DNA of 43,119 nt from a virus (UHGV-0017337), one strand, 5' to 3'; shown: positions 24,746-38,767, counted from the stretch's first letter. Made by a program: numbers and translations. The notes: generated from the letters alone by a model not told the origin.

Positions 24746-24814
24746 ATGATTTACTACATACTGGCTTTCATGATTTTCGCAGCACCTGTGATCGTAGGAA
24801 TAGTAAGAGGTTAA
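24746..24814 (+). CDS. Micro-ORF, 22-aa hydrophobic peptide (MIYYILAFMIFAAPVIVGIVRG)
   Basis: Not in track; AAGGAG RBS 7-8 nt upstream; first ORF after promoter copy 2. Confidence 0.3.
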   Translation: MIYYILAFMIFAAPVIVGIVRG

Positions 24815-24818
24815 TAGT

Positions 24819-25367
24819 ATGAACGAACTGACAAACACCAACGTTGATTTCACAATGTCCAGCCTGGATTTCTTGAAGAATGTTATCAACCCAGCACGTG
24901 TGGCTGAAGGTGAGGAAGTCTGGGTCCGTCATAATGATTTCTTAGCCAGAGTTAAGGATGAATTAGAAGGTCAAGTTTTGGTTACGAAACTTTTCACACC
25001 CAAACTTCAGGGAAGAGGTGGCAATAGAAAACCGTTTGAAGTGGTCGATCTAAACATGGATCAAATGCTTCTTGTGGGTATGCGTGAATCTAAAGCCGTT
25101 CGCAAAGCTGTATTAGCCAAATTAAAGAAGTTGAATAACCACCAACACCAACCATTACTACAGTTACAGTGTGAAATCGGAGAATTGCACAAACAGAATG
25201 ACGAACTACGTAACGAAATTGAAGTCAATCGTAAGACCTATGATTTGTTGTTGGTAGACATGAAAAAGTTATGGGAAGAGAAAGAAAATCTACAAAAGGA
25301 ATTAACTGCTTTGCGTAAACAGGATGATGTTCGTAAACGTGCGCTTAAACTTTTACTTGGATTATAA
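24819..25367 (+). CDS. Rha/antirepressor-like phage regulatory protein with C-terminal coiled coil
   Basis: Weak resemblance to Rha-family core (G..KP......DQ.LLVGM..SKA) by eye; first sizeable early gene. Confidence 0.3.
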   Translation: MNELTNTNVDFTMSSLDFLKNVINPARVAEGEEVWVRHNDFLARVKDELEGQVLVTKLFTPKLQGRGGNRKPFEVVDLNMDQMLLVGMRESKAVRKAVLAKLKKLNNHQHQPLLQLQCEIGELHKQNDELRNEIEVNRKTYDLLLVDMKKLWEEKENLQKELTALRKQDDVRKRALKLLLGL

Positions 25368-25370
25368 GCT

Positions 25371-25532
25371 ATGGGTAAAAAGAAACGGAAACAGCCTGTC
25401 AAGAAAGAACCATATAAACCACGACATGTTAATGAGTTATGGGCTAAAGATGTGGACGACTTTACTGAATCTGACTGGAGTAAAGTCACAAGATTAATCG
25501 TTAAATTAAAACGTCTATCAAGGTACGCATAA
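25371..25532 (+). CDS. Small basic protein (53 aa, MGKKKRKQPVKKEPYKPRH...)
   Basis: Not in track; in-line with neighbours, stop overlaps next start. Confidence 0.3.
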   Translation: MGKKKRKQPVKKEPYKPRHVNELWAKDVDDFTESDWSKVTRLIVKLKRLSRYA

Positions 25533-25807
25533 TGTGTGATTGCATGAAAAAAGTTGGTGACGAACTTCAAAAACGTCTGATGGAAAAAGTACCAGTAGGT
25601 TCGGAAGTCAGCACTAACCTGTTTGATAAAGTTGGCTGGGATAATCAGTGTTTCGGTCTGACGTCTGGTAAAACTCACGTTATGTTGAAATATCGTCTTG
25701 CATACCGCGCTAAAAAGAAAAACGGTGAACTGGCGAAGAACTTCACACGCCTGGAAACCAACATCAAAATGTCTTATTGTCCGTTCTGCGGGGAGAAACA
25801 GGAATGA
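25532..25807 (+). CDS. Cys-rich putative zinc-binding protein (91 aa)
   Basis: CDC...C...CPFC arrangement. Confidence 0.35.
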   Translation: MCDCMKKVGDELQKRLMEKVPVGSEVSTNLFDKVGWDNQCFGLTSGKTHVMLKYRLAYRAKKKNGELAKNFTRLETNIKMSYCPFCGEKQE

Positions 25808-26016
25808 ATAAATTAACAGTAGAACAAGCGGTTGTGTTATCTGGTTTTACAGGGTTACTACATGGATCGCTCAACAAATTTCATGAGGATTTGGAAAAAC
25901 GAATGGGGCGTCCGGTATTTAGTCACGAATTGGGTAGTAAAGAGTTTACTGCAAAAGTCAAAGAACTTTACCGTGATGATTTCATAGCAATGCAGCCCGA
26001 TAACGCCGAGGAATGA
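25804..26016 (+). CDS. Hypothetical protein (start at Met10 of track ORF)
   Basis: ATG overlaps upstream stop. Confidence 0.3.
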   Translation: MNKLTVEQAVVLSGFTGLLHGSLNKFHEDLEKRMGRPVFSHELGSKEFTAKVKELYRDDFIAMQPDNAEE

Positions 26017-26249
26017 TAATGGGAATGAAACAGATTTGGGATGGTAAAAACCTTCCTCCCGTTGGTTGTGAAGTGTTGATCCATCTGGCAAGCATTAACA
26101 AGTGGGTGGTACGAACTGTTCAGGGTTATGAAATATGGCCTTCTGTTTATGAAAATGATACTGCACATCACAGGATAAACATAAAATTTGAAGATAATGT
26201 TCGTCTGTTATGTGATGTGCGACCTCTTGACTGGCGTGAACCTGATTAA
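26013..26249 (+). CDS. Hypothetical protein (78 aa)
   Basis: ORF track; last gene of + strand block, convergent with head morphogenesis gene. Confidence 0.3.
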   Translation: MIMGMKQIWDGKNLPPVGCEVLIHLASINKWVVRTVQGYEIWPSVYENDTAHHRINIKFEDNVRLLCDVRPLDWREPD

Positions 26250-27205
26250 CCCAATGAACCTATATCTTCCGGCAAACTGTACTGTACCCGGCAACGGCAA
26301 TTAATCACATTCGCTGCACTACCGTTAGGATCACGAGGGAACATAAGTGGTCCTAACGGCGTTGAAAACGGTCTGTCCATTGGTATCCAACCGTTCGTTT
26401 CACCCGTGGAAATATGCGCGTCACGTGTCCTACCATCCTTCCTGTACAACCAACGTTTTAATAATTCATTACTGATCGACCCCGTAACCTGACCCTGACG
26501 AATAGCCTGGTCCTGACCAACTGATACAGCACGAAGTGATTCAGTACGCGCTATTGTCTCTGTACGCTGTTTTACGTAACGCAAGCGTGTCTGTTCGATT
26601 ATCTGGTCAATCTTCGCCTGTGATAGTTTCCCGGCACTTACAGCATTCTTTGCACTGTCTGTAACTGTTGTCAGACTGTTCACATAACCTGCTTCACCTT
26701 TTTCCAGTGCTGATCGCAGACGTTGAACCGTCATTTCCTGCCGTGTGGTTAACCCTATTGACGATCGAAAATCACGGGCTATCTGACGCGGATTTCGTCC
26801 GGTTACCACACCCTGATTAACTGCAATCTGAACAGCTTTGACTGTTTCATCACTGACTTCACGGATCAGTTGTCCGACATAGTTGTTGATGTATGTACTG
26901 ACCTGTGGGGTGACCAGACTGAACACAACCGGACCTGTCACAGCCGCTTTCGGTAAAACCTGAACGACTACACGACCTGATTCGGCGATCGCATCTTCAA
27001 TAACCGGGCGCAACTGTGCACTAAGTTCATCAGGGAGTGTTTCAAGAATGGGAAGTAATCCGGCAATACCCTGAGTTTCAATGATGTATTCCAGGTTAGC
27101 TAACGACTCACTACGACGCACGTTTTCCCACACGACATCAAGTGCTTCGCGAATGCGAGCGTCATACTTGTCTGAAATATCCGGGTATGGGTCTTTAGTA
27201 GCCAT
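26246..27205 (-). CDS. Head morphogenesis protein (SPP1 gp7 / Mu F-like minor head protein)
   Basis: 319 aa; C-terminal NVINCRCRVQY matches the conserved NCRC motif of this family. Confidence 0.65.
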   Translation of the reverse strand: MATKDPYPDISDKYDARIREALDVVWENVRRSESLANLEYIIETQGIAGLLPILETLPDELSAQLRPVIEDAIAESGRVVVQVLPKAAVTGPVVFSLVTPQVSTYINNYVGQLIREVSDETVKAVQIAVNQGVVTGRNPRQIARDFRSSIGLTTRQEMTVQRLRSALEKGEAGYVNSLTTVTDSAKNAVSAGKLSQAKIDQIIEQTRLRYVKQRTETIARTESLRAVSVGQDQAIRQGQVTGSISNELLKRWLYRKDGRTRDAHISTGETNGWIPMDRPFSTPLGPLMFPRDPNGSAANVINCRCRVQYSLPEDIGSLG

Positions 27206-37705: not shown

Positions 37706-37797
37706 GTTTGCTTGACTTAGTTGGTGCATTTATAGTCTGTGTGGTAGTTGGGGCAATATTAATGGAGTTGATAGTTGTACTGGCAATGCTAACTTAG
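37702..37797 (+). CDS. Micro-ORF, 31-aa hydrophobic peptide (MSLLDLVGAFIVCVVVGAILMELIVVLAMLT)
   Basis: Not in track; ATG overlaps upstream stop (ATGA). Confidence 0.3.
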   Translation: MSLLDLVGAFIVCVVVGAILMELIVVLAMLT

Positions 37798-37933
37798 TTG
37801 GGAAAGGTGAAAAGTCAGTCATTAACAGTTATAAACAACGTACCAGCCGAAACCCCTGTTAAATTATCGTAAATCCTATACCATCTTCACCAGTTCCACA
37901 CTACCCTGAAACTATCAAACAGGAGTGTGGAAC

Positions 37934-38140
37934 ATGTTCAGATACGTTTTAAAATTACTCGCCATTATTGCAACCTGGCTGATCATACAGTCCGGGTATG
38001 ACCTTCGTGTTCGTAACCAATGCTCAGACTATCAACGAATTACACGAACTGCGACAATCTACAGTCACGGTATTTGTTACGCCGCAGACAGTGACGGACA
38101 GTTTAAAATAATTCTTGACGGTTTACACATTATCAGATAG
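37934..38140 (+). CDS. Small membrane-anchored protein (start at Met4 of track ORF)
   Basis: AGGAG RBS; N-terminal TM LKLLAIIATWLIIQ; 3' end overlaps promoter copy 8. Confidence 0.35.
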   Translation: MFRYVLKLLAIIATWLIIQSGYDLRVRNQCSDYQRITRTATIYSHGICYAADSDGQFKIILDGLHIIR

Positions 38141-38144
38141 ACTT
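38103..38144 (+). promoter_or_regulatory. Conserved early promoter element copy 8 (-35 TTGACG, -10 TAGACT)
   Basis: TTTAAAATAATTCTTGACGGTTTACACA. Confidence 0.5.
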
Positions 38145-38175
38145 CAGTTTGTGTAAAACAACTGGAGTTATCACA

Positions 38176-38442
38176 ATGTTTAAAACTGGTCAACACGTGG
38201 AAATCACCAGTCCAAGACTGTTAGAAATTCTTGCACGTCGCAAATCTAAACCGTTCGGTACTGTTGTAGCGGTCGATCCGCAAGCTGAATACCCGGTTAA
38301 AGTTCGCATCACTGACGATACAGGGTTTCAAATCCCCTTCACGTTCGACGGTGAACAATGCGATTACACTTTCTCATTTACTATGAACGGTCATCATGAC
38401 CATCGTAGCCTGACATCCGATTTAAAAGTGGTGAACGTATGA
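38176..38442 (+). CDS. Hypothetical protein (start at Met10 of track ORF)
   Basis: GGAG RBS upstream. Confidence 0.35.
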   Translation: MFKTGQHVEITSPRLLEILARRKSKPFGTVVAVDPQAEYPVKVRITDDTGFQIPFTFDGEQCDYTFSFTMNGHHDHRSLTSDLKVVNV

Positions 38443-38624
38443 TTAACACACCGTGGTTATATCACTTCATTTCGTTAATGGGAACCAACCGTAGAATGTG
38501 GAATGGCGAACCATTGACAGAACGGCTACAGGCCACCCAACAGTTACCGACTAAACAACCACACCGTAAAACTGGTGTTGCACAGGCGCGACGTATTGCA
38601 CGGAAAAGAAGGAACCGGAAATGA
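38439..38624 (+). CDS. Small protein with basic C-terminus (61 aa)
   Basis: ORF track; ends ARRIARKRRNRK. Confidence 0.3.
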   Translation: MINTPWLYHFISLMGTNRRMWNGEPLTERLQATQQLPTKQPHRKTGVAQARRIARKRRNRK

Positions 38625-38767
38625 TGTGGTTAATTTCAAAACTACCATCACGGGTTATCGCTGTTTTACCGTGGGTAGTTGGTATCGGCGGTTTAATATT
38701 TGTCATTAGCTTTTTGATGACTCTTATAGACCTGACAAATGAATTAGTGAGGTATTGGCTATCGTGA
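38621..38767 (+). CDS. Micro-ORF, 48-aa membrane peptide
   Basis: Not in track; ATG overlaps upstream stop; VIAVLPWVVGIGGLIFVISFLMTLI. Confidence 0.3.
   Translation: MMWLISKLPSRVIAVLPWVVGIGGLIFVISFLMTLIDLTNELVRYWLS

Follow-up and report, generated by a model that had tools for sequence, protein, structure and literature searches.

The stretch of DNA considered here, UHGV-0017337, comprises 43,119 nucleotides (nt), is referred to as the window, and covers the greater part of one genome, that of an uncultured 9NA-like siphophage of enterobacteria. This assignment comes from the nucleotide matches of a 17-kilobase (kb) stretch around the small open reading frames (ORFs) that are the subject of this work. 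That stretch is about 95% identical to the E. coli phages AVIO78A, PJ16, Bas82 and PDP46 and to two Sashavirus assemblies, 84-88% identical to the Salmonella phages Sasha, Sergei, Solent, SP069 and 9NA, and about 80% identical to a set of Klebsiella phages, and an identical sequence is found within the ENA metagenome contig ERZ27287144 k141_640857 (44.5 kb). The orientation of the window is the reverse complement of the GenBank records. An original prediction had placed eight unannotated micro-ORFs in its early blocks, four of them thought to encode hydrophobic peptides with a single helix, and all eight exist at exactly the coordinates proposed. They were recovered as ATG-started, same-strand ORFs filling the gaps between genes in a scan for ORFs of at least 15 codons lying between genes with an overlap of no more than 10 nt, for which the gene map was drawn up manually from the annotation of the relatives. 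The scan added a ninth ORF, I19, that was absent from the earlier list, and the nine are as follows.

24746..24814, + strand: A22, a hydrophobic peptide of 22 amino acids, MIYYILAFMIFAAPVIVGIVRG; the first ORF on its transcript
25371..25532, + strand: E53, a basic soluble protein of 53 amino acids; phrog_17117
32845..32994, + strand: F49, a basic soluble protein of 49 amino acids; first gene to follow the promoter copy at 32775
34024..34185, + strand: D53, 53 amino acids, hydrophobic at the N-terminus (residues 1-16) and continuing into a polar, acidic part of 37 residues containing Cys29 and Cys47
37207..37365, + strand: G52, 52 amino acids, with a C-x-H ... C-x-x-C motif; phrog_3036
37362..37421, + strand: I19, a hydrophobic peptide of 19 amino acids, MTRNVLFYMLIFIIGVLAK; takes up exactly the 52 nt that separate G52 from the gene after it, with a 4-nt ATGA overlap at both ends
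37702..37797, + strand: B31, a hydrophobic peptide of 31 amino acids, MSLLDLVGAFIVCVVVGAILMELIVVLAMLT; ATGA overlap with the upstream gene for a 95-residue protein, and a weak GGGGA
38621..38767, + strand: C48, 48 amino acids, with a conserved LISKLP...LPWVV motif and a C-terminal DLTxxLVRxWLS tail
39908..40066, + strand: H52, an acidic soluble protein of 52 amino acids, between rdgC and a Tad2-like gene

Taken as a whole, we hold it probable that these ORFs are small accessory early genes of a 9NA-like phage, membrane peptides among them. They would form two classes, with E53, F49, G52 and H52 as small soluble proteins and A22, I19, B31 and C48 as single-helix peptides, and D53 standing apart as a protein with an N-terminal anchor followed by what is probably a periplasmic domain with two cysteines.

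Translation signals and hydrophobic character

The ribosome binding sites and the stop-start coupling attributed to the ORFs were confirmed. A22 has an AGGAG 7 nt 5' of its ATG, which itself lies about 25 nt past the inferred start of the transcript; the Shine-Dalgarno sequence of G52 is AGGAGG; H52 combines a GGAG with an ATGA overlap with rdgC; C48 has an AAGGA and overlaps its upstream neighbour by ATGA and its downstream neighbour by GTGA; and B31 is coupled to its neighbour through ATGA. D53 overlaps the upstream gene by 7 nt, and E53 and F49 have 3-nt spacers or a promoter-proximal position.

The hydrophobic character proposed for four of the ORFs holds for three. In Kyte-Doolittle profiles one hydrophobic stretch dominates each of A22, B31 and C48 (best 19-residue means of 2.48, 3.0 and 2.46, respectively), and uninterrupted hydrophobic stretches of about 18 residues or more, as expected of single-pass membrane peptides, are present; D53 is hydrophobic at its N-terminus only (2.0). 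I19 reaches a mean of 1.59 over its whole length. A22, I19, B31 and C48 are accordingly each predicted to be essentially one hydrophobic helix, and E53, F49, G52 and H52 are polar, being basic, basic, Cys/His-rich and acidic, respectively. What sets the micro-ORFs apart from chance is that they fill gaps between same-strand genes and are conserved elsewhere.

The description of the ORFs as unannotated stands for A22 and I19, the only two without annotation in any record, and falls for D53, E53, F49, G52 and H52, which are hypothetical proteins in relatives (labels include 9NA gp17, AVIO78A_042, AVIO78A_026, AVIO78A_022 and AVIO78A_012), and for B31, which has an annotated counterpart in phage phiG7 (phiG7_68). 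Five of the eight ORFs first listed are thus already known from the annotation of relatives, and B31, C48, G52 and H52 had also been called by an automatic gene caller on ERZ27287144 k141_640857. The lack of gene calls for A22 and I19 is presumably due to their 22 and 19 codons lying below the minimum length of common gene callers.

Early operons and their promoter

All of the candidate ORFs sit within + strand operons headed by a repeated promoter of the sigma-70 type. This is marked by a 23-nt element, AAAATAATTCTTGACGGATTACA, made up of a UP-like AAAATAATTC and a -35 TTGAC, which occurs in nine copies in the window at three mismatches or fewer where none is expected, and a promoter scan found a -10 hexamer 17-18 nt past TTGAC(A/G) in every one of the nine. 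Relatives from E. coli, Salmonella and Klebsiella have the element at syntenic positions. Seven copies, at 24676, 28537, 29679, 32775, 36429, 38105 and 40694, head the + strand early blocks, and terminator-like hairpins, two of them bidirectional, close operons.

14485-14507: promoter copy
24363-24385, - strand: promoter copy
24676-24698: promoter copy heading the A22 operon; the full promoter, 24676..24714 on the + strand, has the UP-like AAAATAATTC, a -35 TTGACG, a 17-nt spacer and a -10 TATCTT
28537-28559: promoter copy
29679-29701: promoter copy
32775-32797: promoter copy
36429-36451: promoter copy
38105-38127: promoter copy
40694-40716: promoter copy
30445-30466: terminator-like hairpin
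34472-34491: terminator-like hairpin
40666-40685: terminator-like hairpin

The promoter at 24676..24714 is kept at the same site in 11 relatives. Host sigma-70 RNA polymerase would transcribe the small genes from this repeated strong promoter, and their translation would rely on Shine-Dalgarno sequences of their own or on coupling to neighbouring genes. A search of the whole window against Rfam and a tRNA scan found no RNA family and no tRNA, so no known RNA gene accounts for the regions of the micro-ORFs.

Several side observations concern the non-coding DNA around these promoters. Translation of the promoter element in the wrong frame gives a recurring 'NPSRIIL' motif in spurious ORFs. Upstream of the promoter at 24676, at about 24583-24668, there are two hairpins with 7-bp stems (TAATACA-loop-TGTATTA) whose 5-nt loop is CGTTC or its complement GAACG depending on the genome, and which could serve as operators or terminators. 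A leader of about 110 nt (roughly 36565-36680), located past the promoter at 36429 and before its first gene (36693), is 91-97% identical across the E. coli, Salmonella and Klebsiella 9NA-like phages, and the DNA directly 3' of it, the sole flank that the alignment shows, lacks such conservation. This leader is predicted by RNAalifold to form three hairpins; one pair in them is compensatory (C-G to U-A) and several other changes are compatible with wobble pairing. It has no match in Rfam and may be a structured regulatory RNA.

Conservation and selection in the small proteins

Homologues were taken from 14 relatives in GenBank as well as from contigs of metagenomes and of IMG/VR, codon alignments were built, and the ratio of nonsynonymous to synonymous differences per site (pN/pS) was obtained from Nei-Gojobori counts in all three frames. 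Conservation in related phages, which had been named as a check on the original prediction, turned out to be uneven among the 14 GenBank relatives: D53 is present in all 14, A22 and I19 are present in two each, and B31 and C48 are found in none of them, both occurring in metagenome contigs. Purifying selection in the expected frame together with an excess of changes at third codon positions was seen for D53, E53, F49, G52, H52 and C48. The pN/pS values of the first five are 0.28, 0.22, 0.35, 0.14 and 0.15, respectively, with variable columns by codon position of 23/13/45 for D53 (15 distinct sequences), 25/18/38 for E53 (10 distinct sequences), 12/13/23 for F49 (8 sequences), 12/8/37 for G52 and 12/8/27 for H52. 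In the other two frames their values lie between 0.8 and 3.3 (0.65-3.3 when C48 is included), and the restriction of low values to the one frame identifies D53, E53, F49, G52 and H52 as ordinary protein-coding genes. We are highly confident that these five and C48 are real genes.

The same tests were applied to a control, the hydrophobic 43-residue ORF 24398..24529, which lies in a divergent promoter region and is annotated in a relative as Bas82_0032. It was rejected as non-coding, with an 11-nt frameshifting insertion in PJ16 and nearly all other changes nonsynonymous, and the tests are therefore able to reject an ORF in this same DNA. ORF conservation, the promoter copies and selection on codons support the proposal that these are genuine small genes and that the early operons holding them are driven by host-type promoters.

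D53 has the widest distribution, being found in 24 of 24 GenBank records of 9NA-like phages and in no other phage record, and its presence throughout the lineage suggests a role that is probably conserved throughout it. It is the homologue of 9NA gp17 and a full-length match to phrog_16556 (PHROG E-value 3.6e-28), and the Solent annotation of its homologue reads putative periplasmic protein. Both Cys29 and Cys47 are invariant from E. coli to Klebsiella phages despite an overall identity of 53-57%, which suggests a periplasmic domain. There is no basic residue N-terminal of the hydrophobic core, and S-V-A precedes I16 in the window where relatives have V or M at position -1; since this residue is not kept small, signal cleavage is doubtful and an uncleaved anchor is as likely. 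D53 may thus equally be an uncleaved N-terminal anchor with a disulfide-bonded periplasmic domain or a secreted protein, and the best reading of its sequence is that of a lineage-wide envelope protein.

The other four are soluble proteins with annotated homologues: AVIO78A_042, Bas82_0029 and PDP46_0037 for E53; AVIO78A_026, Bas82_0011, PJ16_023 and Carvaje gp019 for F49; AVIO78A_012 and PDP46_0011 for G52; and Carvaje gp007, KP13-27_00034 and PJ16_005 for H52. E53 and G52 match phrog_17117 and phrog_3036 over their full lengths (E-values of 2.4e-8 and 5.9e-8), and these two families, like phrog_16556, have no assigned function. In the search of family libraries F49 gave only weak matches to helix-turn-helix families, below threshold, and A22, B31, C48 and H52 had no informative family in Pfam, NCBIfam or PHROGs. 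As a further observation on G52, a 74-nt segment at 37353-37426, which covers its last codons, all of I19 and the start of the gene for the 95-residue protein, is deleted in PDP46, PJ16, 536P12 and contig L039, and in the genomes with this deletion the C-terminus of G52 is changed and runs into the sequence of the next gene.

C48, a probable membrane protein restricted to the lineage

C48 has no match in 50,697 GenBank phage records. Among 5.8 billion proteins it is represented by six clusters of 72-100% identity, all with 48-50 residues, and a profile search of 1.84 billion representatives returned only two 50%-identity clusters. The copies come from seven different 9NA-like contigs and all share one location, upstream of rdgC, with downstream neighbours that differ. 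The AAGGA is kept in six of the seven copies, the 4-nt overlap with the upstream gene in all seven and that with the downstream gene in six. Its pN/pS ranges from 0.3 to 0.8 across pairs (about 0.5), with an excess at third positions (variable columns 13/8/24), and AlphaFold2 predicts one continuous helix for residues 10-47 (mean predicted local distance difference test score, pLDDT, of 85). We consider C48 to be a real, lineage-restricted, single-pass membrane protein.

B31, an ORF with two alleles, one of them shared with an unrelated phage genus

Relative to the 14 GenBank relatives, B31 lies in an insertion at 37688-37857 of the window. Close variants with one or two substitutions (P0007-P0010) were found in four metagenome clusters, for which the query of the protein databases had been lengthened by 10 upstream in-frame residues; a plain 16-mer scan of IMG/VR yielded 19 chance matches and no homologue, and degenerate patterns did find copies. 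A second allele, MSLLGLVSAFVVG.. ..MLMVLIVVLAMRT, is present in the 9NA-like contigs L039, L053 and L056 and also in the Seuratvirus phiG7 (phiG7_68) and phage SD04. The alleles are distinguished by D5 and E22 in the window as against G5, V22 and R30, with flanks that are otherwise about 96% identical, and all eight distinct protein variants have 31 codons. Homology to phiG7 runs from about 12 nt 5' of the ATG to the stop codon, which is what would be expected if the ORF with its ribosome site were the unit that moved.

Compared with L056, the ORF has diverged by 10.8%, and the mean for the 1.43-kb stretch that could be aligned is 4.4% (Fisher p = 0.006). Steady fast evolution of B31 was rejected as the cause: variants of the same allele differ by 1-3 nt and their flanks by 4-7%, and for this reason the excess is attributed to replacement of the allele. 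Hydrophobicity is kept more often than in neutral simulations, with P ranging from 0.0014 to 0.40 according to which pair and which direction are taken, so that the support for B31 is real but modest. In phiG7 (L015 1501-2090) the homologue of B31 lies directly 5' of the homing endonuclease gene phiG7_67, and this neighbour might explain the move between phage genera.

A22 and I19

With no more than one residue changed, A22 recurs in PJ16, where it is not annotated, in BDX09P1 and in IMG/VR contig L040, each time with the same promoter and leader upstream. In the BDX09P1 sequences its ORF has 4 changes in 69 nt as against about 7, plus a 2-nt indel, in the 49 nt of the leader. A longer form of 42 residues started by TTG (24686) was rejected, as this TTG is that of the -35 hexamer and only the 22-residue ATG form could be made from that transcript. 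A homologue search with the long form was empty.

I19 is kept in AVIO78A (unannotated there), BDX09P1, L041, L056, L089 and L090 and is absent, through the 74-nt deletion, from PDP46, PJ16 and L039. Forms of 23 residues in L046/L047 and L091 carry an in-frame 12-nt insertion that lengthens the hydrophobic stretch and leaves both ATGA overlaps in place. Few codon changes are available for I19, and its length variants are in frame.

Peptides, chance ORFs or cis-acting elements

A number of observations weigh against the reading of the set as accessory early genes with membrane peptides among them. Hydrophobic ORFs are frequent in the wrong frames of this AT-rich DNA. B31 has a pN/pS of 0.8-1.2 with no excess at third positions (variable columns 8/7/7), and in neutral simulations 66-84% of mutated copies stay open, so a stop-free run of 31 codons is not rare. 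A22 has only 4 variable columns in its codon alignment, too few for a codon test, and both it and I19 could act only in cis, as leader ORFs or ribosome relays. Even among the conserved genes there are in-frame stops, at codon 37 of the D53 homologue in Carvaje (L012 11007-11165) and at codon 8 of the E53 homologue in PJ16 (L005 11073-11231), which indicate that such genes can be lost as pseudogenes, if they are not sequencing errors. Translation of all the listed ORFs is read from the nucleotide sequence alone and, as none of them resembles a characterised family in Pfam, NCBIfam or PHROGs, the functional part of the reading is drawn by analogy.

Some of these observations would also be expected if A22, I19 and B31 were chance or cis-acting ORFs in T-rich spacers, at most ribosome relays or leaders, with a hydrophobicity that derives from T-rich codons. 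To them can be added that I19 spans the gap between two genes precisely, overlaps each of them by ATGA and lacks its own Shine-Dalgarno sequence, that the last codons of A22 hold the Shine-Dalgarno sequence of the next gene (24819), and that all three are absent from most relatives with no obvious harm. However, B31 has moved between unrelated genera as a unit with borders set by the ORF and its ribosome site, sits in a different context in phiG7, and has an invariant length with substitutions that keep it hydrophobic; I19 varies in length in frame and in the direction of a longer hydrophobic stretch; the ORF of A22 has changed less than its leader; and the control ORF 24398..24529 shows what a non-coding pattern looks like in the same DNA. 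We regard an origin by chance or a purely cis-acting role as rather doubtful for the three, and on balance think it more likely than not that A22, I19 and B31 are functional peptides, which would presumably be translated, inserted into the membrane and have some biological role.

Possible roles of the hydrophobic peptides

As products of small accessory early genes, the hydrophobic peptides would most probably enter the inner membrane of the host at an early stage of infection, and their action there would consist in binding membrane proteins of the host or of the phage. The patchy spread of the four peptides, together with the exchange of B31 across genera, points to dispensable cassettes of a host-interaction or exclusion type rather than to core functions in replication or assembly, with D53 as the exception. 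Any specific role suggested for them, be it in host take-over, in superinfection exclusion or as a toxin, would, by analogy, be tentative at best. One such suggestion is that B31, and perhaps C48, I19 and A22, are interchangeable micro-protein cassettes directed at a protein of the host inner membrane or at a defence system bound to the membrane; we think this quite unlikely, and if true the two alleles of B31 would testify to an arms race, or to host-range adaptation, that acted on a transmembrane helix of 31 residues.

Small membrane toxins and class III holins are of similar size and also consist of a single hydrophobic helix, and the hydrophobic peptides recall both in these respects. They might on this account be membrane-damaging toxins or lysis-timing factors, such as a holin, an antiholin or a type I toxin, that depolarise the inner membrane, and C48 has a very weak match to a PHROG holin (E = 0.37). 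However, the genes of the lysis cassette, an Rz-like spanin at 4213..4611 and an M15 endolysin at 4839..5228, are on the - strand at a distance of 20-34 kb, and the micro-ORFs are in early operons with host-type promoters, so that neither the adjoining endolysin or spanin nor the late expression expected of a holin is seen for them. In Pfam, NCBIfam and PHROGs no candidate matches a curated toxin, holin or Imm family at a meaningful E-value, there is no match to type I toxin families (Hok, Ibs, TisB, Ldr and similar), and no micro-ORF matches the Pfam model of Imm_superinfect (PF14373). Small membrane toxins typically have basic termini, and the allele of B31 in the window has two acidic residues and no basic one. 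A role as membrane-damaging toxins or lysis-timing factors is in our view very improbable, and a holin or lysis role in particular is unlikely.

Other genes in the window

Two genes with recognised families bear on the kind of function that the early operons of this phage carry.

14554..14733: Imm_superinfect (PF14373), a membrane protein of 59 amino acids (62.5 bits against a cut-off of 27.9), directly behind a promoter copy
40068-40325: Tad2-like Thoeris anti-defence protein (PF11195), 85 amino acids (90 bits against a cut-off of 25), in an operon with rdgC, H52 and C48

The homologue of the first is annotated in PJ16 as a superinfection immunity protein, and the second lies two genes past rdgC. 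Together they show that the early operons of this phage do carry host-interaction genes, and the Imm_superinfect gene provides a precedent in this genome for a small membrane gene driven by the same type of promoter.

Side observations were also made on larger genes. The ORFs 14735-15838 and 31913-32788 are paralogues with repeated DUF723/treble-clef zinc-finger units and a C-terminal T5orf172 domain (homing-endonuclease-like), and the second of them is absent from that place in most relatives. On the - strand, 5' of the divergent promoter, an ORF for 139 residues at 23948-24367 contains three tandem VEPVTTA heptapeptides, encoded by a 21-nt DNA repeat; the protein in the window has no Pfam match and its PDP46 homologue is annotated as a member of the DUF723 family.

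Relation to known systems and significance

The closest known counterparts are the hypothetical small early proteins of the 9NA-like phages themselves, which include direct homologues of D53, E53, F49, G52 and H52 at matching genome positions and with 53-100% amino acid identity; there is no difference in kind, and the window has its own combination of cassettes. For B31 the counterpart is phiG7_68, a hypothetical protein of 31 residues from the Escherichia phage phiG7, which shares its length, start context and stop as well as 62% of its amino acids and 80% of its nucleotides, and like it is wholly hydrophobic. It differs in belonging to another genus and another neighbourhood, adjoining a homing endonuclease gene, and B31 of the window has D5 and E22 and no arginine near the C-terminus. 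Imm_superinfect resembles the micro-ORFs in being small, hydrophobic and behind the same repeated early promoter, but has two hydrophobic segments where the micro-ORFs have one.

Outside phages, AcrZ, MgrB, MgtS and KdpF are small inner-membrane regulators of bacteria. Like the hydrophobic micro-ORFs they have 20-50 residues, a single helix and no enzymatic domain, and are often missed by annotation. They are presumed to work by binding a larger membrane protein, and the likeness would be one of form only, as no sequence similarity of the micro-ORFs to them was found in the Pfam, NCBIfam and PHROGs searches. A survey by Fremin et al. in 2022 is said to have predicted families of small genes in phage genomes. 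Small proteins of the transmembrane or secreted kind are known to be plentiful among small genes that lack annotation. Predicted transmembrane or secreted proteins make up about 30% of the families of small proteins in the human microbiome and 15% of those in a global catalogue (PMC11364881).

Phage annotation tends to overlook small membrane peptides. A few that have been characterised control the exclusion of superinfecting phages, the take-over of the host or how active its transporters and sensors are. What would be new here is the extension of the annotation by two peptides, A22 and I19, presumably below the usual cut-off of gene callers. The understanding of 9NA-like phages is unchanged by this work, which sorts the firm candidates from the weak ones and provides a ranked list for a phage group with tractable E. 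coli isolates (AVIO78A, PJ16, Bas82). Of these, AVIO78A has I19, D53, E53, F49 and G52, and PJ16 has A22, D53, F49 and H52. As C48, B31, I19 and A22 are present in some strains and absent from near-twins, these phages offer natural knock-out comparisons.

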